Notes: generated by a model not told the origin, from the letters alone. A DNA stretch of 64,000 bases from an uncultured delta proteobacterium (GCA_963823335.1 CAWGLD010000001.1:1856001-1920000), one strand, 5' to 3'; counted from the stretch's first letter, positions 44,223 through 60,378 are shown. A program made the numbers and translations.

Positions 44223-46178
<1,956 letters not shown>

Positions 46179-46199
46179 AACCTATCTTTAAAGTATCTT

Positions 46200-47145
46200 T
46201 TGCCCAATCGTTCTCCTGTATCTGCGAATAATCTTGTGGGTATTCGTCCAAGCATTGGACTCGTAAGTCGTAATGGAATCATCCCCTATTCCTTTACCCA
46301 GGACACGGCAGGACCCATCTGCAGGACGGTTGAGGATGCTGTGCGCGTGTTGGATGTGATTGCGGGGTATGATCAAGCAGATGACGAAACAGCCTGGTCC
46401 ATCAATCGAAAACCAATATCTTATATGGGGTGTTTGAAAGAGGATGGACTTAAAGAGAAACGCATTGGTGTCCTGGAAAGTTTCTTTGGTATGGATGCTA
46501 TTCATAAAGATACGAACAAGGCTGTGAAAAGCAGTATTGAGACCATGCAAAAACAAGGTGCCGAGATGGTATCTTTAAACGGCAGAGATTGATTCCGACC
46601 ATCTTGTCAATGACGTCAGTGTTCACCTGCACGATCTTAAAGATCATCTGAACGTTTACCTGGGAGATCTTCCAGAGCAGGCTTGCGTCCATTCGGTTGA
46701 AGAAATTCTGGTGTCAGGTAAATACCATGCAGGTATCGAAGAAAACTTGAAGAAGGCAATGGTTTTAAGTACCGGGACAGCGGAGTACAATAAACGACTT
46801 GTCGAAAGAAATAAGCTTCAAACCCGGGTTATGAAACTGATTGCCGATTACCAGTTGGATGCACTGGTTTATCCACATCAAAAGCAGTTGGTATGCAAGG
46901 TTGGTGGAAGCCAAAATGAGCGCAATGGGGTTTTAGGCTCTGTAACGGGATTTCCGTCAATCTGTGTTCAGGCCGGCTTTTCAACCCCTTCGGAAACAGC
47001 ACCCATTGGTGTACCCATCGGCATGGAAATTTTAGGGCGACCTTTCAGTGAAGCAACGCTCATCGAAATCGCCTATGGTTTTGAACAGGCAACACACCAC
47101 CGTAAGCCACCATTAAGTGTGCCACCACTTGGCGGCAAAACTTGA
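46200..47145 (+). pseudogene. amidase-signature family remnant (5'-truncated, frameshifted near 46580)
   Basis: SANNLVGIRPSIGLVSRNGIIP..QDTAGP.. continues in the +1 frame (EIDSDHLV...GFPSI..GVPIGMEILGRPFSEATL). The N-terminal catalytic Lys and GGSS region are absent. Confidence 0.8.
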
Positions 47146-47158
47146 TCATAAAGGAACA

Positions 47159-48769
47159 ATGATGAATTCAATTCGCGATAATCACAACGCAAACAAGGTT
47201 GTTGTGCCGCAGGATGCAAAAAAACTGCTCCTGTCGGTTATTCGGTCCGGTGACCGGGTCGTTCTGGAGGGAAACAATCAGAAACAGGCCTTGTTTCTTT
47301 CAAAACAGCTGGTGGATTTGTCCGCATCGGATATCAAGGATCTGCATATCCTGATGTCGTCGGTAACCCTGGACGAGCACCTGGATCTTTTCCGAAAGGG
47401 GATTGCTTCCAGACTCGACTTTGCCTTTTCAGGACAGCAGGCGGTGCCCCTGGCAAAGCTTGTTCAGGACGGAAGGGTTGTTATCGGGTCGATTCATACC
47501 TATTCCGAGCTGTTTAGCCGCTATTTTACGGATCTGACACCCAATGTCGCATTGGTTTGCGCGGAAACGGCAGATGCCCAAGGCAATTTATACACCGCTG
47601 GCAATTCAGAGGAGACACCGGTTTTGTGCGAAGCGACTCATTTTGGTAAGGGGATCGTCATTGCCCAGGTCACAAAAATAGTGGAAAAGGTGCCGCGTGT
47701 GGATATTCCCGGAGATCAGATCGACTTCGTGATCCCCACGGGTGAGCCCAACCAGATTCAGGCTCTCTTTACCAGGGATCCCGCCCATCTCACCACGACC
47801 CATGTGCTCATGGCACTGATGGTAATAAAAGGTATCTACGCCGAGTACGGGGTCCAGTGTCTGAATCATGGCATCGGCTATGCAACGGCAGCCATTGAAC
47901 TCCTTTTACCGACCTTTGCCATGGACCTCGGTCTTAAGAGAAAGATCTGCTCCCACTGGGCCCTCAACCCCCACCCCACGTTAATTCCCGCCATCGAGTC
48001 CGGTATGGTGAAATCCATCTATTCTTTTGGAAGCGAGCCGGGAATGGACGACTACATTGCAGCAAGAAAAGACATTTTTTTTACTTCCCCGGACGGTGTG
48101 CTCAAGTCGAGCCGCTGCCTGGCTCAGCTTGTCGGATATTACGATTGCGAGTGTTTTGTCGGCGCAACGCTCCAGATCGATCCCGACGGTAACAGCTCGA
48201 CAGCCATAAGCGGACGCATCAGCGGGTTCGGGGGAGCGCCCAACCTGGGGTCGAACGCAACCGGCCGCCGTCACGTTACGCCTGCCTGGTTAAAAGTGGG
48301 CCAGGAAATTTCTGCTGCCGGTGGTAGTGGAAAGATTAAACGTGGCCACAAGCTGATCGTGCAGCTCACGCCGACTGTCAGTGCCAAAAAGGACATTCCG
48401 GTCTTTGTAAAATACCTGGATGCCACCCTGATGGCCGATCAGGGCTTGTTCGAGCTTCCTCCGGTGATGATTTATGGAGATGACATCACCCATATCGTCA
48501 CGGAGAAAGGAATTGCCTACCTGTGCCGGTGCGGTAGTCTCGAAGAACGCCGCGCCGCTATTCGTGCCATAGCCGGCCGGACGCCTGTGGGAGAAGAAGA
48601 GGTTGCTTCAGAAACGGAGGCACTCCGGAAAAAAAGAGCCGTGGCCTACCCCGAGGACCTGAACATTCAAGCTGAAATGGTGTCGAGGGACATGCTTGCG
48701 GCAAAGAACATGCAGGACCTTGTGGATATCTCGGGAGAGCTTTACCGACCACCCCGGAAGTTTCTATGA
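47159..48769 (+). CDS. mdcA: malonate decarboxylase alpha subunit-like ACP/CoA transferase (orphan)
   Basis: GDRVVLEGNNQKQA, IHTYSEL, LNHGIG, LNPHPTLIPAIESG, GFGGAPN, PVMIYGDDITHIVTEKG. Confidence 0.88.
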   Translation: MMNSIRDNHNANKVVVPQDAKKLLLSVIRSGDRVVLEGNNQKQALFLSKQLVDLSASDIKDLHILMSSVTLDEHLDLFRKGIASRLDFAFSGQQAVPLAKLVQDGRVVIGSIHTYSELFSRYFTDLTPNVALVCAETADAQGNLYTAGNSEETPVLCEATHFGKGIVIAQVTKIVEKVPRVDIPGDQIDFVIPTGEPNQIQALFTRDPAHLTTTHVLMALMVIKGIYAEYGVQCLNHGIGYATAAIELLLPTFAMDLGLKRKICSHWALNPHPTLIPAIESGMVKSIYSFGSEPGMDDYIAARKDIFFTSPDGVLKSSRCLAQLVGYYDCECFVGATLQIDPDGNSSTAISGRISGFGGAPNLGSNATGRRHVTPAWLKVGQEISAAGGSGKIKRGHKLIVQLTPTVSAKKDIPVFVKYLDATLMADQGLFELPPVMIYGDDITHIVTEKGIAYLCRCGSLEERRAAIRAIAGRTPVGEEEVASETEALRKKRAVAYPEDLNIQAEMVSRDMLAAKNMQDLVDISGELYRPPRKFL

Positions 48770-49123
48770 GTAGCGAATAGCCATCCGTACAACGATGTAT
48801 GTATATTTATCTTGACATACCATCTCCGATTATATATTATCCGCCGTCCAAAATGAGTGATGCCGTTGTAACCTTGAGCTCTTTTTATTAATTTGCCAAT
48901 TATATTAAACTGTTATGTTTTTTCTGGCGTGGCGAATGACCGGTTCCGAAGTTGCCGGTTTCTTAAAAGGAACTTGGGGTTTGTTGGTTTTGGGATAAAT
49001 TGCCAGTATATATAATTAAAACAGAATGTTAAATTAAAACAGTCGCTATGCTATCAATTTGCAGAAAAAATCAACGCCGTTGGTTTGTGGACGGGCAGGA
49101 AACTGGTCGAGCAGGGAGGTTAT

Positions 49124-49471
49124 ATGAGAAAGGGGCATAAAACTGACACCATCATCGGTTATGTGGGCGAGACGGAAGATGACGATAGTATCAGACTGAC
49201 GATATTTGCGGAAGAAGAGGACTATCTGGTCGAGATGAACAAGCAGGGAAAGAAACTGCTGCAAGTGTTGGATTCCGAAGTCAAGGCTACCGGGGAAATT
49301 GAGCAGGACAGCGATGGCAGAAACGTGATTTGCATCACGAAATTCGAGATAATCGATGACGATTATACCGATGAAAATTTTGACGATGAAAATTACGATG
49401 ATGACGATGACGATTTCGATGACGGTGATGCCGATGATTACAACGACCATGGGGACGATTGGATCGAATGA
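49124..49471 (+). CDS. small protein with a beta-rich (OB-like) core and an extremely acidic C-terminal tail
   Basis: SD GGGAGG; 115 aa; 23 of the last 38 residues are Asp or Glu. Confidence 0.8.
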   Translation: MRKGHKTDTIIGYVGETEDDDSIRLTIFAEEEDYLVEMNKQGKKLLQVLDSEVKATGEIEQDSDGRNVICITKFEIIDDDYTDENFDDENYDDDDDDFDDGDADDYNDHGDDWIE

Positions 49472-49710
49472 CGGTTTCCCGCAAAAATCCTGTGATAACG
49501 GGTAGATACTCATGGATAAATATCTTGGCAAACCGTCTCGATTGCAGAAATTAAAAAAATGTTTTGTTGTATTGAAAAAAAACCTTGTATTGTACCTTTG
49601 TATGATTACTCTTGCGCATTACACCCTTGCTTGAAAGATCTTGCCGATTTGTTTTCGAAGCAAGGTATAACGTTGTTCAACAAGGAATTTATTCCGAAAG
49701 AGGTTGAAAA

Positions 49711-51024
49711 ATGATACAGCAAATTACGGTCAGACCAAAAGAACGTCATACCGTTCCAAGTCAAGTTCCTCTTGCGGATGTTGAAGAGGAACCTCCAAGC
49801 CAGTGCCTTCCTTCTTTCTCCGCTCCAACCACTTTCCAACAATTATATCAAGATATTGAAACAAATAAAATCTTGTCTTTCCCCCAGTTCAAAACCGGTT
49901 TTTCCCCTGGGCGAACGCAGTTCAGACGAAAGTTCTTTCCTGGAATATCGACCAAGCAGTGGAACGACTGGCACTGGCAGGTGAGCCATCGAATCCGCAC
50001 CGAAGCCCAACTCAAAGAAATGCTGATCCTGTCTGAGGACGAGGCGCTTGCCCTAACACAGAGGCAGGCTAAATTACCTTTGGGTATTACGCCTTACTAC
50101 ATGAGCCTGGTAGCCCGGGACAATCCCATGCAAGCATTGCGGCGAACCGTCATTCCGACCTGGCAGGAAAATCTGCAGATGCCGGGGGAGGCGGACGACC
50201 CCCTTGGTGAGGAATCCCAGAGCCCGGTTCCCGGTCTGATTCACCGTTATCCGGACCGTGTGCTGCTGCTGCTGTCCGATTTTTGTTCTACCTACTGCCG
50301 GTATTGTACCCGCTCGCGCATGGTGGGGCATGGGGGAGTGACCCCCAGCCGGTCCCGCTTGGAGCGTGCTTTCGACTATATTCGGTCTAAACCTTTGGTT
50401 CGGGACGTACTCCTGTCCGGGGGTGATCCCTTACTGCTCAGTGACGAGCGACTGGCCTGGATCCTTTCACGTCTGCGCCAGATTCCGCATGTGGAGATCG
50501 TGAGGATCGGGACTAAAGTTCCGGCGGTACTGCCCCAGCGGATCACACCTCAACTGGTGCGCATACTGCGACGCTATCATCCTTTGTGGATGAGCCTGCA
50601 TTTTACCCATCCCGATGAATGCACGGCAGAGTCTTACAGGGCGTGCACACAGCTTGCCGACGGCGGTATTCCTCTGGGCTCCCAAACGGTACTTCTCAAA
50701 GGGATCAATGATGACGTGCAGATCATGACCCAGCTGGTGCATCATTTGATGAAAATGCGCGTGCGTCCCTATTATCTCTATCAGTGCGACCCCATCACAG
50801 GCTCGTCTCATTTCCGGACACCGTTGGAAAAAGGGATTGAGATTATCCGTGGAATGCGTGGTTTTACGACCGGCTATGCGATTCCAACATTTGTGGTGGA
50901 TGCTCCCGGCGGTGGCGGCAAGATTCCGCTGATGCCTGATTACATGAGTGGCCGGGATGATGACGGGTTTATTTTGAAGAACTACGAAAACAGGCTGTAT
51001 CATTATCCGGACTGCTCTGCATAA
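49711..51024 (+). CDS. KamA-family radical SAM/PLP 2,3-aminomutase (lysine-type active-site residues)
   Basis: WNDWHWQ, DPLGE, HRYPDR, CSTYCRYCTR, LSGGDP, YLYQCD, FVVDAPGGGGK. Confidence 0.93.
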   Translation: MIQQITVRPKERHTVPSQVPLADVEEEPPSQCLPSFSAPTTFQQLYQDIETNKILSFPQFKTGFSPGRTQFRRKFFPGISTKQWNDWHWQVSHRIRTEAQLKEMLILSEDEALALTQRQAKLPLGITPYYMSLVARDNPMQALRRTVIPTWQENLQMPGEADDPLGEESQSPVPGLIHRYPDRVLLLLSDFCSTYCRYCTRSRMVGHGGVTPSRSRLERAFDYIRSKPLVRDVLLSGGDPLLLSDERLAWILSRLRQIPHVEIVRIGTKVPAVLPQRITPQLVRILRRYHPLWMSLHFTHPDECTAESYRACTQLADGGIPLGSQTVLLKGINDDVQIMTQLVHHLMKMRVRPYYLYQCDPITGSSHFRTPLEKGIEIIRGMRGFTTGYAIPTFVVDAPGGGGKIPLMPDYMSGRDDDGFILKNYENRLYHYPDCSA

Positions 51025-51102
51025 GGAAAGTGACGCTGATTTTCACCCGGCTGTCTGTAGGGTTGGATTGTTTTGGCATTTTGACTGAGGAGAAATTGTT
51101 CG

Positions 51103-52101
51103 ATGGGTATGACAATTGGATTGACCTACGATTTGCGGTCCGAGTATCTGGCCATGGGTTTCAGTGAGGATGAAACAGCCGAGTTCGATCGGGACGACAC
51201 CATTGAAGCGATCGAGTCGGCTCTCCAGACCCTGGGTCACCGGACAGAGAGGGTGGGAAACGCAAAGCAGCTGGCGGCGGCCCTGGTGGAGAAGCGGCGC
51301 TGGGACATGGTTTTCAACATTGCCGAAGGATTGCACGGTATAGGACGTGAGGCGCAGGTGCCGGCTTTGCTGGATCTTTACGAGATTCCCTATACCTTTT
51401 CAGACCCGCTTGTCATGTCTCTGTCCCTGCACAAGGGAATGACCAAACATGTTGTACGCGATGCCGGTGTGCCAACGTCCGATTTTATCGTGGTGGCGTC
51501 TGTTCAAGATGCCGGAGCCATTTCGTTTGATCCGCCTTATTTTGTAAAGCCCGTGGCCGAAGGCACCGGCAAAGGTGTGTCGCCAGAATCCATCGTCCAG
51601 GAGCGGGAGGATCTGCCGGAAGTGTGCAAACGGTTGATCACGGCTTACGGCCAGCCCGTTCTTGTGGAATCCTTTCTACCCGGACGGGAGTTTACCGTAG
51701 CCATCCTGGGTACCGGCCGCAAAGCGTCGTCCCTGGGAACCATGGAAGTTCATCTTTTATCCAAGGCAGAGCAGGGCATCTATTCCTATGTGAACAAGAA
51801 GCTTTGGGAAGATCGGGTTAAATATGAATTGGTGCTTCCTGATGCGGACTCTGTTGTGGCCGAAGCAGAAGATGTGGCCCTCGAGGCCTGGCGGGTCTTG
51901 GGATGCCGGGATGCCGGCCGCGTGGATATCCGATGTGACCAACAGGGTGCGGCCATGTTTATAGAAGTCAATCCTTTGGCCGGCATTCACCCCAACCACT
52001 CGGATCTTCCCATCATCTGCAACCTGCAGGGGATCCCCTATGTCAATCTAATCGAGCGTATTGTCGCCTCGGCGGCACACCGTATGCGGACGGTTTCCTG
52101 A
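51103..52101 (+). CDS. D-Ala-D-Ala-ligase-like ATP-grasp enzyme 1
   Basis: VFNIAEG..GREAQVP, PYTFSD, FVKPVAEGTGKG, GREFTV, RVDIR, IEVNPLAG. Confidence 0.88.
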   Translation: MGMTIGLTYDLRSEYLAMGFSEDETAEFDRDDTIEAIESALQTLGHRTERVGNAKQLAAALVEKRRWDMVFNIAEGLHGIGREAQVPALLDLYEIPYTFSDPLVMSLSLHKGMTKHVVRDAGVPTSDFIVVASVQDAGAISFDPPYFVKPVAEGTGKGVSPESIVQEREDLPEVCKRLITAYGQPVLVESFLPGREFTVAILGTGRKASSLGTMEVHLLSKAEQGIYSYVNKKLWEDRVKYELVLPDADSVVAEAEDVALEAWRVLGCRDAGRVDIRCDQQGAAMFIEVNPLAGIHPNHSDLPIICNLQGIPYVNLIERIVASAAHRMRTVS

Positions 52102-53111
52102 TGCAGGTTGCTGTGGTCCACAACGCCGTTGACGAATCTGACGGACCGGACGCAAAGGACGTGCTTACACAGGTGGAAACCGTTTGTGATGCCCTGGGGG
52201 TTCTGGGCCATGACACCGAAACCATTGCCTGTACTTTAGACCTTGACCGATTTCAACGGGTCCTCACGCTAATATCTCCGGATGTCGTCTTTAACCTGGT
52301 GGAATCCCTGGCTGGAACAGGACGTCTCATTCATCTGGCCCCATTTGCGATGGATGCCATGGGTCTGCCCTATACCGGATCGAGCGCCGAACAGATTTTC
52401 ATGACATCCAACAAGGTGATGGCCAAGCATCACATGCTCGTGCAAGGCCTACCCACCCCAGTCTGGCTGGGGCCGTATCCGGAGGGCTCCCTGGGAAAAT
52501 ACCCGGTGGAGGCCGACGGAATCTGCGAGGAGACCTGGATCATCAAATCCGTGTGGGAACATGCCTCCATCGGTCTCGATGAAACCAATATCGTGAAGGG
52601 AGAAGACAAAACCAAGCTATTGTCGCTTTTAAGGCTTCGGGCCGGGAGTTTAGGTGGTTCCTGTTTTGCCGAGCGATTCGTCGATGGACGTGAATTCAAT
52701 CTTTCGCTTCTTGGCGGCAGAGCCGAAAACCCCGTGGTGCTGCCGCCTGCTGAAATTGTTTTTGAGGATTACGGCCAGGAAAAACTCCGCATCGTGGACT
52801 ATCAGGCCAAGTGGGATGAGACGTCTTTCGCCTATCAACACACCCCCAGACGGTTTGACTTCGACCCTGACGATGACCACCTGTTAGAAACCCTCAAGGG
52901 CTTGGCAAAGAAATGCTGGATCGGTTTTGGATTGAGGGGATATGCCCGGGTTGACTTTCGTGTCGATCCAGCCGGGAATCCGTGGATATTAGAGATCAAT
53001 GCAAACCCATGCCTGTCGCCGGATGCAGGCTTTGCTGCAGCCCTGGCGCAAGGGGGGCTGGCATTTTCCGAGTCGATACGGTATATTTTAGAAGATGTCC
53101 CGATATATTAG
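52101..53111 (+). CDS. D-Ala-D-Ala-ligase-like ATP-grasp enzyme 2
   Basis: VFNLVES, PYTGS, IIKSVWEHASIG, GREFNL, YARVDFR, LEINANPCL; TGATG coupling to ligase 1. Confidence 0.88.
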   Translation: MQVAVVHNAVDESDGPDAKDVLTQVETVCDALGVLGHDTETIACTLDLDRFQRVLTLISPDVVFNLVESLAGTGRLIHLAPFAMDAMGLPYTGSSAEQIFMTSNKVMAKHHMLVQGLPTPVWLGPYPEGSLGKYPVEADGICEETWIIKSVWEHASIGLDETNIVKGEDKTKLLSLLRLRAGSLGGSCFAERFVDGREFNLSLLGGRAENPVVLPPAEIVFEDYGQEKLRIVDYQAKWDETSFAYQHTPRRFDFDPDDDHLLETLKGLAKKCWIGFGLRGYARVDFRVDPAGNPWILEINANPCLSPDAGFAAALAQGGLAFSESIRYILEDVPIY

Positions 53112-53348
53112 CCCCCATGATTGAAGAACCTGATCAACGCTGGCGCTATCATTTCAGCCTGAAGTCGCAGTTTCGCGGGTAGAGACTTATTGGGTCTCTT
53201 AACCAAAAGTTTATATATTTGGATCATCCCCTAAAGAGTTGAACCCTTTTTCCCAACTAATTGGGAGAGGGTTTATGCATTTTGTGATAAAAGATCTTTC
53301 TCCTTTCCGGTTTATCCGGGTTGGAAATTGCCAAGAGGTTTATAAACA

Positions 53349-55601
53349 ATGCTTCGAATTCGTCGTATCTATGATGATGCCCTGCCGATAAACAAGGAAA
53401 TTATCAGGAAGGTCCGTGAGATCCTGAAAAGCCGTTTTAAAGATGTTCCTGAAAATGAGATTGATAATCTGGGCGAAAATTTGCGCAATCCCTTTAAGAA
53501 GAGGTTTTGTACCAGTCTTTTCGTGGCGGAAACTCTGAAGGGAAAGGTACAAGGTTTTGCCACCCTTCTGCATGAACCGGAGATCGGGTTTGTCTTTCTG
53601 GACTGGATCGCCATGGCGAGCGGCAAGGGCGGCGGAGGGGTCGGAGGTGCTTTGTATGAACGGGTTCGTCAGGAAGCGGCGGCCCTACATGCAAGCGGAC
53701 TTTTTTTTGAATGCCTCCCTGATGAGCCTCAAGACTGCCCCCAGGACGACCTCCTGAAGCAAAACCGTTCCCGCCTGCGGTTCTATGAGCGTTATGGTGC
53801 ACGGCCCATTATCCGCACCGGTTACGAAACAGCGGTGAATCCAGACGACACATGCATGCCCTACCTGGTTTATGACGGTCTCGATCGGCAGCACCCCCTG
53901 AGGCGGGCTTTTGTCAGGAAAGTTGTGCGGGCCATTTTGGAACGGAAATATGCCGATCTTTGCCCACAGGCATATGTAAATCGGGTCGTCGCATCTTTCA
54001 AAGACGACCCAATCCAGATCCGGGATTTTCGTTATGTGAAACCGGAGGCGATCAAGACAACCGTGGAGAGCCATTCCCTGGAGCAGGTTGCCCTGGTGAT
54101 CAACGAGCAGCATGTCATTCATCATGTTCATGAGAGGGGTTATGTAGAATCTCCCGTGCGGGTTCGCAGTATCTTGAAAGAGCTGGCACTGGGGGGCTAT
54201 TGTGCGCAGATCAAACCGAGACATTTCGGGGACAAGTATATTTATGCCGTTCACGACACCGATTTTGTCAATTACCTTCGACGCGCCTGTGCCGAAATGG
54301 AAGAGGGTAAATCGCTATACCCCTATATTTTCCCCATACGGAACAAGACCCGGCCGCCAAAAGAACCTTCGGTGCTTTCCGGGTATTACTGCATCGACAC
54401 ATTTACACCCATCAACAAAAATGCCTATCCCGCAGCCAGGGGGGCGGTGGACTGCGCTCTGACGGCGACCAGGGAAATCCTGAGTGGCAGACGGATTGCT
54501 TACGCGTTGATACGACCGCCAGGGCATCATGCCGAGCGGCGGGCCTTTGGAGGTTTTTGTTATTTTAACAACAATGCCATTGCGGCCCAACACCTGAGCG
54601 CTTACGGCAAGGTCGCCATTTTGGATGTGGACTACCATCACGGGAATGGCCAACAGGAGATTTTCTACCGACGCTCCGATGTGCTGACCGCATCCATTCA
54701 CGGTCACCCGGCATTTGCCTATCCTTATTTCAGCGGCTTTGAAGATGAAAAGGGGGAAGGGGAGGGCGAAGGTTTCAACATGAACCTGCCCTTGTCTGAA
54801 AAGACCGGTGGTGTTCAATACCGAAAGGCCCTGGAAAAGGCCCTCAGACGAATCAGTGTGTTTGGTCCACAGTTCCTCGTTGTGGCCCTGGGTCTTGATA
54901 CGGCCAAGGGGGACCCCACAGGAACCTGGAGCCTTTCACCGAAGGACTTTGAGGAAAACGGTCGATTGATCGGCGGCATGGGTCTTCCCATCGTGGTCAT
55001 TCAGGAAGGGGGCTATCGCATTGCGACTTTAGGGAAAAATGCGCGGCGATTTTTTAAGGGCCTGGTAGAGGCCAGTGCCAGCTGGGATACCAGCAGCCCC
55101 GCGGCCAAGGCGGTACCACTCGGTGTCGAGTTTCGTAATGAGCTTAACACCGGTGACGCGAAACGGATCCATGATCTCGTTCAGGTCACCGGCTATTTTT
55201 CTGATGAAGAAGTGTCTGTGGCTGAGGAGCTGGTGACGGAACGCTTAGCCAAGGGACCGGAGAGTGGTTACAATTTCTTGCTGGCGGAACAGTACGGCCG
55301 ACTCATCGGCTACACCTGCTACGGCATGATTCCAGGTACCACAGGCAGTTATGATTTGTACTGGATCGCCGTGCATCCTGATTTTCACCGGCATGGGATC
55401 GGCCGACGTTTGATTGATAAAACCGAAAGCAGCATCAAGGAGACTGGCGGCACCCGAATTTATGTGGACACTTCTCAAAGGGTTCAGTATGCCAGCACCC
55501 GGGCCTTTTACGAAAGCTGCAGGTATCGGTTGGAATCTGTCCTGGCAGACTTTTATGCTCCCGGAGATGGAAAGGCTATATACTGCAAAGAGCTGGTCTA
55601 A
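53349..55601 (+). CDS. GNAT - histone-deacetylase/acetylpolyamine-amidohydrolase - GNAT fusion
   Basis: N-terminal GNAT (LDWIA..GGGVGGALY..RFYERYG); HDAC (RPPGHHA, GGFCYFNN, DVDYHHGNG, LGLD, QEGGY); C-terminal GNAT (LYWIAVHP..RHGIGRRL..RAFYESCRY). Confidence 0.9.
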   Translation: MLRIRRIYDDALPINKEIIRKVREILKSRFKDVPENEIDNLGENLRNPFKKRFCTSLFVAETLKGKVQGFATLLHEPEIGFVFLDWIAMASGKGGGGVGGALYERVRQEAAALHASGLFFECLPDEPQDCPQDDLLKQNRSRLRFYERYGARPIIRTGYETAVNPDDTCMPYLVYDGLDRQHPLRRAFVRKVVRAILERKYADLCPQAYVNRVVASFKDDPIQIRDFRYVKPEAIKTTVESHSLEQVALVINEQHVIHHVHERGYVESPVRVRSILKELALGGYCAQIKPRHFGDKYIYAVHDTDFVNYLRRACAEMEEGKSLYPYIFPIRNKTRPPKEPSVLSGYYCIDTFTPINKNAYPAARGAVDCALTATREILSGRRIAYALIRPPGHHAERRAFGGFCYFNNNAIAAQHLSAYGKVAILDVDYHHGNGQQEIFYRRSDVLTASIHGHPAFAYPYFSGFEDEKGEGEGEGFNMNLPLSEKTGGVQYRKALEKALRRISVFGPQFLVVALGLDTAKGDPTGTWSLSPKDFEENGRLIGGMGLPIVVIQEGGYRIATLGKNARRFFKGLVEASASWDTSSPAAKAVPLGVEFRNELNTGDAKRIHDLVQVTGYFSDEEVSVAEELVTERLAKGPESGYNFLLAEQYGRLIGYTCYGMIPGTTGSYDLYWIAVHPDFHRHGIGRRLIDKTESSIKETGGTRIYVDTSQRVQYASTRAFYESCRYRLESVLADFYAPGDGKAIYCKELV

Positions 55602-55775
55602 ACTTGATCCGGTCCTGTTGCCGATACCACATTATGAGACATAATCATCTTGACAACCCCTCAGCACCTTTCTATATCATATCCATATCATAACAAATCG
55701 ATCCAAAATGACGCCACCAGGGAAAATGCACAGAATCCTTGCCGGTCAGCCGGCGTGTGCCAAAGGGGGCAGTTT

Positions 55776-57329
55776 ATGGAAAGTGTTAGAGCCGACGAGC
55801 AATATTTACTGCTCAAAGTGGCTGTGGTCGCCAGAGGCTACCGCGCGCTGTCTGTGATGCGAATGCTCAGCGAAATCAAACCGGGCAGGCTGCGCTTGCA
55901 GCTGGTGGCGATTGCCACGGTCAATAAATCCATTGCCTGCTCCAAATTCGCCGGTGACGTGGGTGTAGCGGTTTATGACGATCCCATGGATCTGCTGGCT
56001 GTGGAGCACCTGGATTTGATTCTCGAGATGACCGGAGACGCACAGACACTGGCCCGCATAGTCACGAACAAGCCACCTTCCATCGGCATATTGGACCGTC
56101 AGGCGTCAATGCTCATTTTCGATATCGCCGGGTTGTACCAACAGGTATCAGCACGTGAATCAGAAATCAGCCTGGCTTCCTCCTTTGCTTCCGCGTTGTT
56201 GGAGGCTTCGCCGGACGGGGTTATGGTCCTTGACCGCGACTATCGGATTATCAATTGCAATGAATCACCCATCATCACCGGCGGAAAAGGACGAGAATTC
56301 GCCCTTGGAAGATCTTGCTTTGACCTGATCCATAATTTCAGAGACGTATGTAGTAACCAAGAGCTGAGATGTCCGATGGAGGAAGTGCTCAAGACCGGTC
56401 GACCAGCCCGGACAGTTCACGAGACCCAACCGGGCAGCCCGGATACCCGGGTCCACCAATCCACAGCCTACCCATTGACCAACTCCGTTGGTGAGATCGT
56501 ACAAATCGTGGTCTCTATCCGGGACATTACCCAGGAATTGACGGACAGGGTAGAACAACGCACCCAGGTCATCAAAAATGATCTTGTACAGTTTGTACGT
56601 GAAGATCGCCTGGCCTCTCTCGGTCGGCTTGTGGCTTCCGTATGCCATGAAATCAACAATCCCATTGCCAGTATCCTGACATTCAACAAGCTCATCTTAC
56701 GCTGTATTCAGGAAGACGAGTTGCCGGAGGAAGGTATGCAAGCCTTCAGCCACTATCTGGATATCTGTGTCCGGGAGGCCCTGCGCTGTGGTCAGATCGT
56801 CAAAAATCTGCTTACTTTTGCCAGACAAAAAAACATCGAACTCATTCAGATCGACCTGAAAGAAATGATTGATACCATACTGGTCCTCACGGGTCATCAA
56901 TTGGAAATGAACGGTATTGCCTATGATCTGAATCTGCCGGAAACATCCTTCATTGCAAAAGGAGATTATACCCAGATTCAACAGTGCCTGATGAATCTCA
57001 TTTTCAATGCCATGGAGTCTATGACGGACGGTGGAACATTGACCTTGGCGGGCGGACAGGACCGTAAAATGAAAACAGTCTGGGTGACCGTGGCCGACAC
57101 CGGCTACGGGATTGATCCGGAAGACCTGCCCCGTATTTTCGAGCCTTTCTATACCACCAAAAAAGAAGGTAAAGGTGTCGGGCTTGGACTGTCAATGGTA
57201 TATGGAATTATCCGCGAACACCAAGGGACCGTTGAAGTCCAAAGCGAACCAGGCCAGGGATCCCTGTTCAAACTCACCTTGCCCGCTGGTGTTGAAGCCC
57301 TTCAGGAAACCAAAGGAGAAGACACATGA
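55776..57329 (+). CDS. cytoplasmic histidine kinase with an N-terminal Rossmann-like domain and PAS
   Basis: KVAVVARG...LDLILEMTGD, PAS (SPDGVMVLD..CFDLIH..CP), VCHEINNP, NAMES, DTGYG, GVGLGL. Confidence 0.9.
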   Translation: MESVRADEQYLLLKVAVVARGYRALSVMRMLSEIKPGRLRLQLVAIATVNKSIACSKFAGDVGVAVYDDPMDLLAVEHLDLILEMTGDAQTLARIVTNKPPSIGILDRQASMLIFDIAGLYQQVSARESEISLASSFASALLEASPDGVMVLDRDYRIINCNESPIITGGKGREFALGRSCFDLIHNFRDVCSNQELRCPMEEVLKTGRPARTVHETQPGSPDTRVHQSTAYPLTNSVGEIVQIVVSIRDITQELTDRVEQRTQVIKNDLVQFVREDRLASLGRLVASVCHEINNPIASILTFNKLILRCIQEDELPEEGMQAFSHYLDICVREALRCGQIVKNLLTFARQKNIELIQIDLKEMIDTILVLTGHQLEMNGIAYDLNLPETSFIAKGDYTQIQQCLMNLIFNAMESMTDGGTLTLAGGQDRKMKTVWVTVADTGYGIDPEDLPRIFEPFYTTKKEGKGVGLGLSMVYGIIREHQGTVEVQSEPGQGSLFKLTLPAGVEALQETKGEDT

Positions 57330-58678
57330 TACAATCGATGCGGATACTCATTGTGGATGACGAGGAGCCGATTCGCGAGGCTTTGGGTGCCTGGCTTGTC
57401 AAAGATGGATATCAGGTCGACACAGCCGATTCAGGACAGACGGCCTTGGTGTGTATTGAAAAAGGCTTGTTTGATCTGTATCTGGTGGACATTAAGATGC
57501 CGGGGATGGGCGGGATCGAGCTCCTCGGGAGGATCAAGGAAATTCAAGCGGATGCCAACGTCATTATGATCACCGCTCACGGGTCTATCCAGACAGCTGT
57601 GGAAGCCATGAAACGCGGTGCCTGCGATTATATCTGCAAACCTTTTGATCCGGACGAACTGTCTTTGATGACTGAACGGGTGTCGGCCAACCAGGCTCTG
57701 AAAAATGAAAACCTGGTGTTGCGTGAACAGCTCATGGAGCAGCAGGAAACCTCTTTTGAGGGTATCGTGGTGGCCTCTGATGCGCTGCAGGAGGTGTTCA
57801 ACAGTCTGGTGGAGGTGGCACCGTCGTCGGCACCGGTGCTTATCACCGGCGAAACAGGTGTAGGCAAAGAGATGGTGGCCCGGGCAATTCACATGCAGAG
57901 CGGCAATGCCTATGGACCCTTTGTTGCCATCAACTGCGGTGCTCAATCTGAAACGCTTCTGGAGAGCGAGCTCTTCGGTCATGAACGTGGCGCGTTTACA
58001 GGCGCAGTCAAAGCCCGCCGGGGAAGATTGGAAATGGCCAACAACGGAACCCTGTTTCTGGACGAAATCGGGGAGATTTCACCAAAAATGCAGATCAGTC
58101 TGTTGCGTGTTCTGGAAGAAAAACGTTTTCAGCGGCTTGGGGGGAGTCAGGAGATCAGTTCGAGTTTCCGACTGATATGTGCGACACATCGCAATCTCCC
58201 TCAGCTGATCAAAGAGGATCAGTTCCGCGAGGACTTCTATTATCGCATCAATGTTATCTCCATCGACATTCCTCCCTTGCGTGAGCGACTGGCTGACGTC
58301 CCGGTGCTTGCTGATCACTTTCTTGTTCAATTTGTCCAGGAAACAGGCAAACGCCTGGAAGGGTGGACCCAACGGGCCATCGGGATGTTGATGGCTTATC
58401 ACTGGCCGGGAAATGTCCGTGAGTTGCGCAACGTGGTGGAAAGGGCTGTGGTGCTTGCCCGGGGTCGAATGATCGGTGCCGATGAGCTCTCGTTTCTTCA
58501 GCCCGGTAAAGATGATTGCCATTTCGGGACCATGACCCTCAAAGAAGTGGAGGTCAGTCATCTAAAGATCGCTCTGGACGCTACGGGCTGGAACATTTCA
58601 AGAGCTGCAGAGCAGTTGGACATCGACCGGGGCACGCTGGCCAGAAAAATAAAACGTTACCAACTGACCAGGACCTAA
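57326..58678 (+). CDS. sigma-54-dependent response regulator (NtrC/AtoC family)
   Basis: REC (VDDE, DIKMP, KPFD), [31 protein letters not shown] overlap with the kinase. Confidence 0.95.
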
Positions 58679-58679
58679 A

Positions 58680-58822
58680 TAGCCCATCCACAAAGGGCTC
58701 TTTGCGCGATTTCTGCGTTGAGCGTCATGATTAGAATCCTCAAAATAGCCAGCTATTCCTGCGGTTCAAATCTGACGCCCGCCTTAAACTCACGCAAAAT
58801 TTCTCATCCGTGGATGGCACTA
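58680..58822 (+). repeat. long-hairpin (REPIN/MITE-like) element H4
   Basis: CCATCCAC / GTGGATGG termini; core TTTCTGCGTTG...ATAGCCAGCTAT...CGCCTTAA. Confidence 0.75.
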
Positions 58823-58838
58823 ACTAAACTTATGCCGG

Positions 58839-59408
58839 GTGAATGATTTGGCCAGTGATCAAGCGAAATCCAAAACCAGGGCCCTCATCGATTTAATCCC
58901 GCTTGGACGTGTCGATCAGCTGGCAGTTTCCATCGTAGCGGCAAATCTGCAGGCCATCCTCGGTTTGAACAGCAATGTTTCAGAGCCCAGGCAGGATCCG
59001 GAATACGCATTGCTGCCACAAAGGAAGCAGTTCGATGCTCTGAAAATTATTAAAGAACTTTCCAGAGAAACACACGGGGCTCCGTTCAAACTGGGTGTAA
59101 CGGCCCTCGACATCTGTACGCCTATCCTTACGTTTGTCTACGGTGAATCGCAGCTTGGAGGGAACATCGCGCTGATTTCCCTGAATCGGCTTGAGGGGGA
59201 TCGTGCTGAGTTGGCATATGAACGGGTGGTAAAAATCGGTGTTCATGAAGTCGGACATATACTGGGACTGGAGCACTGCTGGGAAGTCCGGTGTCTGATG
59301 CATTTCAGCCGCAATCTCGAGCAGCTCGATTCCCTGCCGCTGCAATTCTGTTCTGCCTGTGAATTTGAAACCACCCGGCGCATCAAGTCTTTGAACGGCA
59401 GGTGCTAA
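58839..59408 (+). CDS. archaemetzincin (M54) zinc metalloprotease
   Basis: RKQFDA, FVYGE, HEVGHILGLEHC..CLM..FCSAC (HExxHxxGxxH plus a Cys4 zinc finger). Confidence 0.9.
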   Translation: MNDLASDQAKSKTRALIDLIPLGRVDQLAVSIVAANLQAILGLNSNVSEPRQDPEYALLPQRKQFDALKIIKELSRETHGAPFKLGVTALDICTPILTFVYGESQLGGNIALISLNRLEGDRAELAYERVVKIGVHEVGHILGLEHCWEVRCLMHFSRNLEQLDSLPLQFCSACEFETTRRIKSLNGRC

Positions 59409-59466
59409 CCCCGAAGGTTGCAGCGGAGTTAGCGAGTGAATCTGATTATAAAATCGTTCTGTGATT

Positions 59467-60378
59467 TTATTTGAGGAACGTTTTTACCAGACGATCCCAG
59501 CCGATTTCGGGCACCGCTCCATAGATATCGTCGATTGCCTCACCACCGGTTGCTGCCATCCGGTAGTCTCCCCCCTCGTCCAGCAGGGTGGTCAGTCGTG
59601 ATGCTTCGTCATCGGTCCACGCCAGGCTTTCAACGCCGAACAAGAGGTTCTTGAGACTCTTACGAAGATTGTTCGGCTGAACAACCATGAGCCACCCTTC
59701 AGCGTAGGGAGACGTATTGACGTCTTTGGAATTGCCGCTAATTCTCGGGTTAACCGCAACCACCGTACCATCCAGAGGACTCAGTGTTTCAGCTTCGTTG
59801 TTTCCTCTGACCATTGTGGCTTGGGGTCTGTTTTGTTCCATGGATGCTCCGAGCCGCGGAAGCTTGATTTCATCCTGGGGGCCGAGCAATCTCAGAGCAA
59901 AATCGTCGATTCCCACCCGGACCCGACCACCATATTCAACGCGCGCCCAGGTATGACCGTAATGGTAGTAGTGATCCCTGGCGACAGAAAAGCCGGATAC
60001 GTGATCACAGACCGGTGGTGTCAGAGCAGGCATCACGGCTCCGTCTTCTATCATCTGGTCGTAAGGGCATTTTACACAATTGTAATTGTGGGCACACATT
60101 TTATAATCCACCCGACCGCTCAACATGTGCCGGCATTTTCCCTGGTTTTCCAGCAAACCCATTCGAGGCGTGCGGAAGTCAGCCCTTGAACGTCCGGCCG
60201 CATTTTCCCTGGCCTGGAAATCCGCCTGAACTTTCTGATCGAAGGCACAGCCGAGGCAATCAAAAGCATTGATGCACATCAAGGACTTCACCACACCTGC
60301 TTTAGCCCAGACACACTGATTGTTTGAGAGACCGAAAACATTTGGGCGTCCGGCTTTTTTTCTAGTGTTCTCAACCAT
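59467..60378 (-). CDS. GcvH-like protein with two N-terminal Cys4 repeats and no lipoyl-lysine
   Basis: YHYGHTWARVE..VRVGIDDFA..SPLDGTVVAVN..NTSPYAEGW; the ESVK site is replaced by VRGNN; 2x C-x12-C-x5-C-x2-C; SD AGGAGG. Confidence 0.85.
   Translation of the reverse strand: MVENTRKKAGRPNVFGLSNNQCVWAKAGVVKSLMCINAFDCLGCAFDQKVQADFQARENAAGRSRADFRTPRMGLLENQGKCRHMLSGRVDYKMCAHNYNCVKCPYDQMIEDGAVMPALTPPVCDHVSGFSVARDHYYHYGHTWARVEYGGRVRVGIDDFALRLLGPQDEIKLPRLGASMEQNRPQATMVRGNNEAETLSPLDGTVVAVNPRISGNSKDVNTSPYAEGWLMVVQPNNLRKSLKNLLFGVESLAWTDDEASRLTTLLDEGGDYRMAATGGEAIDDIYGAVPEIGWDRLVKTFLK

Follow-up and report, generated by a model that had tools for sequence, protein, structure and literature searches.

What does a bacterium make with a lysine 2,3-aminomutase-like enzyme, two divergent ATP-grasp ligases and a protein that holds acetylase and deacetylase domains in a single chain, all of them encoded in a row? 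This question is raised by a stretch of 64,000 nucleotides (the window) from an uncultured delta proteobacterium (GCA_963823335.1, CAWGLD010000001.1:1856001-1920000), for which a preliminary description made from the sequence alone had described five co-oriented genes as a candidate beta-amino-acid ligation system. All five are found as open reading frames (ORFs) on the + strand. They encode a small acidic protein (49124-49471, 115 residues), a KamA-family lysine 2,3-aminomutase of the type that uses radical S-adenosylmethionine (SAM) and pyridoxal phosphate (PLP) (49711-51024, 437 residues), two divergent amide ligases of the ATP-grasp type resembling D-alanine-D-alanine (D-Ala-D-Ala) ligase (Ddl), here called AG1 (51103-52101, 332 residues) and AG2 (52101-53111, 336 residues), and a fusion protein (53349-55601, 750 residues) in which a deacetylase domain of the acetylpolyamine amidohydrolase (APAH) type stands between two GNAT domains. 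The genes are separated, in order, by 239 nt, 78 nt, a 1-base overlap in which the stop of AG1 and the start of AG2 share the sequence TGATG, and 237 nt.

The reading that we favor, with middling confidence, is that the operon encodes a self-contained cytoplasmic pathway to a small acetylated beta-lysine amide or peptide, beta-lysine being strongly indicated as the building block. The preliminary description is upheld in its assignments of the enzymes, and not in its treatment of the acidic protein as a constant member of the set. It also knew of no characterized product for these genes; a full-text literature search, with its results judged at the level of abstracts, likewise found no published product or description of this gene set.

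A core module of four conserved enzymes

A profile search with AG2 in species-representative genomes gave at least 591 confirmed relatives, and the locus counts that follow come from the best 80. Among the matches listed, the relatives include sequences labelled as other phyla (Krumholzibacteria, Kiritimatiellia, Lentisphaerae, Verrucomicrobia, and Acidobacteria), and others carry the names of the cultured Desulfosarcina variabilis, Desulfosarcina cetonica, Desulfatitalea alkaliphila, and Desulfamplus magnetovallimortis. In these loci of other species, the gene directly upstream of AG2 is AG1 in 71 of the 75 with enough sequence, and KamA lies upstream of the ligases in 64 of the 66 that could be judged. 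When 2.8 kb of downstream sequence is available (63 loci), 44 loci hold the full GNAT-APAH-GNAT protein (the long form) and 15 a GNAT of the C-terminal type alone (the short form), one of the remaining loci having only the N-terminal GNAT part and three giving no match to any part with tblastn. A GNAT is then found downstream of AG2 in 59 of 63 loci, and the one that accompanies the ligases in every form of the operon is the C-terminal one, which either follows AG2 directly or is fused to it. Co-occurrence in other genomes, whose absence would have refuted the preliminary description, is found for KamA, AG1, AG2, and the GNAT, with or without the deacetylase, and these four make up a strongly conserved core module. 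The deacetylase and the first GNAT are instead an optional add-on (44/63 loci), and the acidic protein is not constant.

Natural fusions point in the same direction. Among the best 120 of 1032 longer AG1 relatives (E ≤ 1e-40), 75 are AG1-AG2 proteins, 13 are KamA-AG1 proteins, and 2 are AG1-AG2-GNAT proteins, the rest being 29 more distant double ATP-grasp proteins and 1 other. Also, the 120 AG2 relatives listed include nine AG2-GNAT fusions with the GNAT at the C terminus. Because all four kinds of fusion exist, the four core activities are tied together, and it can be argued that AG1 and AG2 act side by side. In one locus (G037, L016), only the first ~69 residues of AG1 are found, ahead of an AG2-GNAT fusion. 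The 29 double ATP-grasp chains (the P0350-P0392 group, ~680-750 residues) have two AG1-like halves at 33-43% identity, some of them being labelled Polyangiales or Bdellovibrionota, and this group may be a sister system.

Closer to the window, 14 loci from relatives of its genome show a full AG1 beside AG2 in 11 cases and KamA also in 11. In the order, which consists of sulfate reducers, 401 genomes were sampled, and 164 of them, distributed over 85 of 174 genera, have an AG2 orthologue (E ≤ 1e-30); in the window's own genus, 3 of 10 genomes have one, all three having this KamA alongside. With such frequencies in the order and in the genus, the module is common yet gained and lost.

Few other genes travel with the module. 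Besides the core genes, their shadow ORFs, and a gene for a CxxCxxCC (PF03692) protein, no recurrent family, transporters included, occurs in more than 9 of 81 loci. There is no conserved ORF of 20-75 residues beside the operon that would resemble the precursor of a peptide made by the ribosome and modified after translation (RiPP); the largest cluster of small ORFs (12 loci) consists of shadows of the CxxCxxCC gene. Moreover, no mur or van genes are conserved beside the ligases. That genes for transport, immunity, a precursor peptide, or the cell wall are not conserved here favors a small product that stays in the cytoplasm. Of the 80 loci, 16 have the CxxCxxCC protein (173 residues; for example, L024:6504-7025) encoded between KamA and AG1, as do 2 of the 14 loci from relatives (L012 and L013), and it may be an Fe-S or electron-donor accessory of the radical SAM enzyme.

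The aminomutase, the fusion protein, and the ligases

The KamA enzyme scores 344.8 bits with the family model TIGR00238, above the cut-off of 199.2, and below the cut-off of every equivalog model, these being AblA (TIGR03820, 480.5 against 525.4 bits), the glutamate (421.2 against 650) and arginine (381.5 against 600) models, and EpmB (TIGR03821, 241.4 against 369.3). Residues 72-432 align with the clostridial lysine 2,3-aminomutase 2A5H, the only solved relative, with an E-value of 2.7e-139. The protein has an N-terminal extension of ~70 residues and stops five residues past this alignment, whereas the clostridial enzyme continues for ~50 residues that have no counterpart. As claimed earlier for the radical SAM motif, the PLP lysine, and both acidic residues, all are intact: CxxxCxxC is present as CSTYCRYC and aligns with the 2A5H motif, position 293 of 2a5h_A is matched by the D of YQCD, position 330 by that of VVDAP, and position 337 by the lysine of GGGGK (in DAPGGGGK). 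In the clostridial enzyme, D293 and D330 hold the lysine epsilon-amino group and K337 binds PLP. Since the pair of aspartates and the PLP lysine are kept, the sequence suggests that lysine is the likely substrate and beta-lysine the likely product. In another genome (G005, L009), the KamA match is split over two frames, and a frameshift or an assembly error is possible.

The preliminary description was correct in seeing an acetylase/deacetylase fusion in the last gene, which has three domains and not two. Residues 266-571 (54144-55061, + strand) are an HDAC-family domain (PF00850, 259.8 bits against a cut-off of 27.9), whose closest structures are the APAH enzymes 9gkz, 6phr, and 3q9b, with E-values from 4.3e-73 to 7e-66. 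The segments PPGHHA, DVDYHHGNG, GLDT..GDP, and EGGY are identical between this domain and the aligned APAH 9gkz; presumably they contain the His-His dyad, the Asp/His/Asp zinc ligands, and the catalytic Tyr of a zinc deacetylase. Residues 583-748 (55095-55592, + strand) are a GNAT domain (PF00583, 62.1 bits) with 2r7h as the closest structure (E 1.7e-36), this being the GNAT DDE_3044 of a Desulfovibrio. No literature was found on the locus tags around DDE_3044, and the one paper found to cite 2R7H treats an unrelated toxin. The N-terminal region, residues 1-240 (53349-54068, + strand), gives only Pfam GNAT matches below threshold (PF13508, 20.7 bits against 27). Its AlphaFold2 model has a mean predicted local distance difference test score (pLDDT) of 87.7, and the top Foldseek matches are GCN5/PCAF acetyltransferase domains (E 3.6e-8, template modeling (TM) score to the target of 0.74-0.76), in agreement with a predicted GNAT fold. 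This gives a GNAT-APAH-GNAT architecture, the first domain being assigned by its modelled structure and the other two by sequence.

With AblA as the best-scoring equivalog of KamA and a GNAT downstream in nearly all loci, the operon resembles the AblA/AblB route to N-epsilon-acetyl-beta-lysine, known from methanogens and some bacteria, in which a GNAT acts after a lysine 2,3-aminomutase and puts an acetyl group on the beta-lysine unit. If this were the pathway here, the ligases would be unrelated to it, which is very unlikely: the AblA cut-off is missed, the fusion protein has no match to the AblB model TIGR03827 at E ≤ 0.01, and a frequent deacetylase and two obligatory ATP-grasp ligases have to be accounted for, and many species have the ligases joined in one chain with KamA or with the GNAT, which is unexpected for unrelated genes. 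Moreover, the real AblB-type acetyltransferase of this genome is encoded on contig 4 (316 bits against 205.1). There (L109:4828-8270, - strand) it lies directly upstream of the gene for a protein of 827 residues in which two KamA-like radical SAM halves stand in tandem; its score, 164.6 bits, does not reach the family cut-off. In seven other genomes of the genus, frames of 823-861 residues show the same two-part match, and this may be an unusual second beta-amino-acid locus. The KamA of the window is the only full-length KamA-family gene found in the assembly, which is 94% complete.

Another known use of a KamA-family enzyme is the EpmA/EpmB system, where it supplies beta-lysine for an amide bond on elongation factor P (EF-P). 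The EpmB cut-off is missed by the window's enzyme, neither EpmA nor efp lies beside the operon, EpmA is encoded 770 kb away (L107:1444-2382, + strand; 316.7 bits against 286.9), and no EpmB-type KamA is recognized in the same assembly.

Both ligases exceed the cut-off of PF07478, the C-terminal ATP-grasp domain of Ddl (AG1 92.6 bits and AG2 59.3 bits), and their closest matches in the PDB are Ddl enzymes (6u1c for AG1, E 1.3e-21; 5d8d for AG2, E 1.2e-12). An alignment of Ddl, AG1, and AG2 shows K99, K103, K141, E177, R257, D259, E271, and N273 (numbered as in the genome's own Ddl) to be invariant. Thus, fold and ATP-grasp catalytic residues are those of the Ddl/Van enzymes, and with them comes the alternative that D-Ala-D-Ala, or some variant dipeptide for the cell wall, is what the ligases produce. 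This is scarcely credible. With the Ddl naming model NF002378, AG1 scores 164.4 and AG2 83.8 bits, a third to two thirds of the cut-off of 243, whereas a true Ddl with the motif GGISSERE is encoded 270 kb away at 349 bits, and neither AG1 nor AG2 is this housekeeping enzyme. The N-terminal substrate motif GGxSxE is absent from both AG1 and AG2, although invariant acidic residues remain in their N-terminal parts near its position. Also, the omega-loop and the C-terminal substrate loop of Ddl, which carry its specificity residues, are replaced by family-specific and internally conserved sequences (HSDLP and YSYVNK in AG1, SPDAGF and DYxAKW in AG2). Finally, these are two different paralogues in a fixed order and often fused, with no conserved mur or van genes alongside. 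Because a true Ddl and an AblB are encoded elsewhere in the genome, the operon would serve neither D-Ala-D-Ala synthesis nor the known N-acetyl-beta-lysine pathway.

The preliminary description had rightly seen two translationally coupled ligases that lack the GGxSxE motif and differ strongly from each other; their identity is ~27%, and AG1 orthologues from 16 aligned species are 54-84% identical. It had also suggested a heterodimer, which remains plausible. The 75 AG1-AG2 fusion proteins are consistent with it, and prediction of an AG1-AG2 complex gave a weak pass, with a score of 0.48 against 0.00 for the best of three controls, a contact agreement between runs of at least 87%, and a partner pLDDT of at least 82. 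In the calibration, 116 of 157 solved complexes and 2 of 215 mismatched pairs came up to the same mark; scores of 0.60 or less comprise just 18 of those 157 solved complexes and both of the passing mismatches. Moreover, Ddl homodimers are among the solved structures, so this pass may mirror the likeness of AG1 and AG2 to them and not a specific heterodimer.

The acidic protein, expression, and surroundings of the operon

The first gene of the set encodes a protein with no match in Pfam or NCBIfam. Its AlphaFold2 model has a barrel of five strands and a single helix (residues 7-76), and after it a disordered Asp-rich tail that ends in DDWIE. The mean pLDDT is 72.9, with values of ~85-90 for the barrel and under 50 for the tail. 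The top Foldseek matches are oligonucleotide/oligosaccharide-binding (OB) folds at borderline significance, among them the single-stranded DNA-binding protein Rim1 (E 6.5e-4), CST, and the N-terminal domains of lysyl-, aspartyl-, and asparaginyl-tRNA synthetases, with TM scores of 0.39-0.48, and the core is predicted to be an OB fold. In close relatives, the tail ends in DDWI plus E, D, or R, and distant members have other acidic endings. A LysW-like identity was considered and rejected, because the core is a predicted OB fold and not a zinc ribbon, and the C-terminal residue is not conserved. In an RNA-library contig from a close strain, six extra bases at 49380 add two more acidic residues to the tail.

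A profile of this family matches 679 representative clusters, nearly all of them stand-alone proteins of 75-165 residues, and the family occurs in 95 of the 401 genomes of the order, often in several copies. The acidic gene lies within 8 kb of the operon in 5 of 81 loci. Of the 27 best copies outside the genus, 9 are within 1.5 kb of KamA, mostly divergent from it, 1 is just downstream of the fusion gene, and 17 are away from the operon; in the flanks of 15 of these 17 copies, 29 ORFs were scanned, and the 17 with a Pfam match are mutually unrelated. Members of the family occur in 62 of the 164 genomes with the operon and in 33 of the 237 others, an odds ratio of 3.8 that is overstated, as kinship between the genomes is ignored. 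Part of the adjacency may be plain synteny, since in genome G186 the acidic gene keeps a neighbor encoding an SH3-domain protein with no operon nearby, and in L117, a locus that does adjoin the operon, the acidic gene is also followed by an ORF that looks SH3-like by eye. The acidic protein, claimed earlier as a member of the set, is read as a facultative accessory or a favored neighbor and not as a core part.

These observations bear on two alternatives for the product. First, the ligases could put beta-lysine on carboxylates of an acidic tail, either that of the OB-fold protein or of another target, in the manner of LysX/LysW, RimK/S6, or tubulin ligases. The finding that at least five families of the order have an acidic-tailed OB-fold gene adjoining the operon, in three arrangements, and the enrichment of this gene in operon-bearing genomes (related genomes not being independent) argue for such a modification or carrier role, and a small acidic-tailed protein beside ATP-grasp ligases and acetyl-type protecting chemistry recalls LysW/LysX. 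We consider it distinctly unlikely, given that the gene is close to few operons and mostly found in unrelated contexts, that the end of the tail varies, that the zinc ribbon is missing, that the ligases are of the Ddl type and not of the RimK/LysX type, that the protein is missing from most operons, and that the SH3-type neighbors hint at synteny for part of the adjacency. The specific version in which beta-lysine, protected and deprotected by GNAT-APAH-GNAT, is ligated by AG1/AG2 onto the acidic tail of an OB-fold-based carrier or acceptor has an equally small probability in our judgement; if true, it would mean that acidic-tailed proteins have been recruited convergently for a new chemistry, one of amino-group carriers or of tail modification.

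Second, the ligases could build a beta-lysine oligomer or polymer, or an alternating co-oligomer, whose polycationic charge would be masked and unmasked by GNAT-APAH-GNAT, with the acidic protein as counter-ion or chaperone. Two ligases with one dedicated precursor enzyme, a deacetylase domain of the APAH type, which suits a terminal aliphatic N-acetyl amine, and the recurrence of an Asp-rich protein beside the operon would all fit. Precedents are the streptothricins, with their beta-lysine chains and N-acetylation of these, and cyanophycin synthetase, with its two-site logic. However, Ddl-type ligases are typically single-turnover formers of dipeptides, no exporter or immunity gene is conserved nearby, the short-form operons (15/63) have no deacetylase, and 102 of the 164 genomes with the operon give no match to the acidic protein. 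Overall, a polymer appears unlikely.

Regarding expression, a consensus scan gives a sigma-70-like site, TTGACA-17-TATTAT with 11 of 12 matches, at 48812-48840 on the + strand, upstream of the acidic gene, which is a candidate promoter by pattern match. No sigma-54 site (TGGCAC-N5-TTGC) with at most one mismatch is present in 48769-49711, the best GG-N10-GC there reaching 7/10. In other species, a sigma-54 site of at least 9/10 is found upstream of KamA in 16 of 65 loci, against 1 of 65 control stretches. For a riboswitch or leader, Rfam gives no match at E ≤ 1 in 46000-60000. Parts of the window are present in six RNA libraries from estuaries, coded as six studies; as all date from 2018, they may be one campaign. 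Contigs from four of these libraries match at 95-99%, cover the genes, and bridge their junctions, which hints at expression; the junctions are acidic gene to KamA (49096-49986), KamA to AG1 (50900-51795), AG1 to AG2 (51673-53033), and fusion gene to the kinase gene beyond it (54222-55918). In two runs, the contigs depart from the window at 53212, inside the spacer between AG2 and the fusion gene, which also holds a short inverted repeat.

Past the fusion gene, a histidine kinase gene begins after 48 nt and is followed by that of an NtrC-type regulator. The region 55650-59408 encodes this PAS histidine kinase, the NtrC-type sigma-54 activator, and an archaemetzincin-like protein (131.5 bits, below the cut-off of 145). 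All three were considered as operon members and rejected, the arrangement recurring within the genus only. On the other side, 46711-48769 holds an ORF of 144 residues whose match to amidases is limited to their C-terminal part, and which overlaps an MdcA-like gene at the start of the latter. This MdcA-like gene stands alone (760 bits, slightly below the cut-off of 789), with no other malonate decarboxylase subunits nearby.

The proposed pathway and its relation to known systems

In the pathway that we propose, KamA would first turn L-lysine into beta-lysine, a well-supported step. Then AG1 and AG2, non-redundant and probably paired, would each form one amide bond through an acyl-phosphate, so as to link beta-lysine, through its carboxyl, one of its two amines, or both, with common metabolites or with a second beta-lysine. 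The conserved C-terminal GNAT would cap a free amino group with an acetyl. In the long form only, the APAH-type domain would deacetylate a terminal aliphatic amine, for which N-epsilon of the beta-lysine unit is the most plausible candidate, and the N-terminal GNAT would add an acetyl. Acetylation could in this case be a transient protecting group during ligation or a switch of the charge of the product. A beta-lysine solute, a cell-wall variant, and a protein modification can all be put forward as outcomes, the cell-wall reading being the weakest, and most likely the product would be a compatible solute or a nitrogen-rich metabolite retained in the cell.

Several points weigh against this proposal. 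The product itself is inferred, and the data do not fix which carboxyl and which amine are joined by each ligase. A fused acetylase and deacetylase would be a futile cycle unless regulated or specific for position. Also, the operon is patchy even within the genus (3/10 genomes), the contigs from the RNA libraries cannot prove one transcript, and these libraries may hold DNA, which leaves transcription itself unproven. Finally, an acidic-tailed gene adjoins the operon in several families, which keeps a protein acceptor alive as a reading.

Among known systems, those of N-acetylglutaminylglutamine amide (NAGGN, with Ngg), N-acetylaspartylglutamate (NAAG), and carnosine are alike in their logic, with an acetyl cap and ATP-grasp amide bonds leading to a small cytoplasmic solute. 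Ngg is the GNAT/ATP-grasp enzyme of NAGGN synthesis, and NAAG synthetase is an ATP-grasp route to an N-acetylated peptide. To our knowledge, none of the NAGGN, NAAG, and carnosine routes uses beta-lysine or a radical SAM step. Carnosine synthase, an ATP-grasp protein (PMC3407494), is also similar in ligating a beta-amino acid. However, the ligases of these three routes differ from AG1 and AG2 in belonging, by their description, to other branches of the ATP-grasp family (RimK-like and others). The deacetylase domain resembles the APAH enzymes in sequence (E ~1e-73) and in its catalytic motifs, and departs from them in its position between two GNAT domains and within a beta-lysine operon.

A pathway this common and without a known product is a gap in the metabolism of sediment anaerobes, and the existence of cultured carriers makes the operon directly testable. 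From such a pathway, the Ddl branch of the ATP-grasp ligases would gain two new specificities, useful for beta-peptide biocatalysis, and enzymology a GNAT-deacetylase-GNAT enzyme with a possible built-in acetyl switch. Moreover, the solute or peptide of beta-lysine that it yields may belong to a new class.

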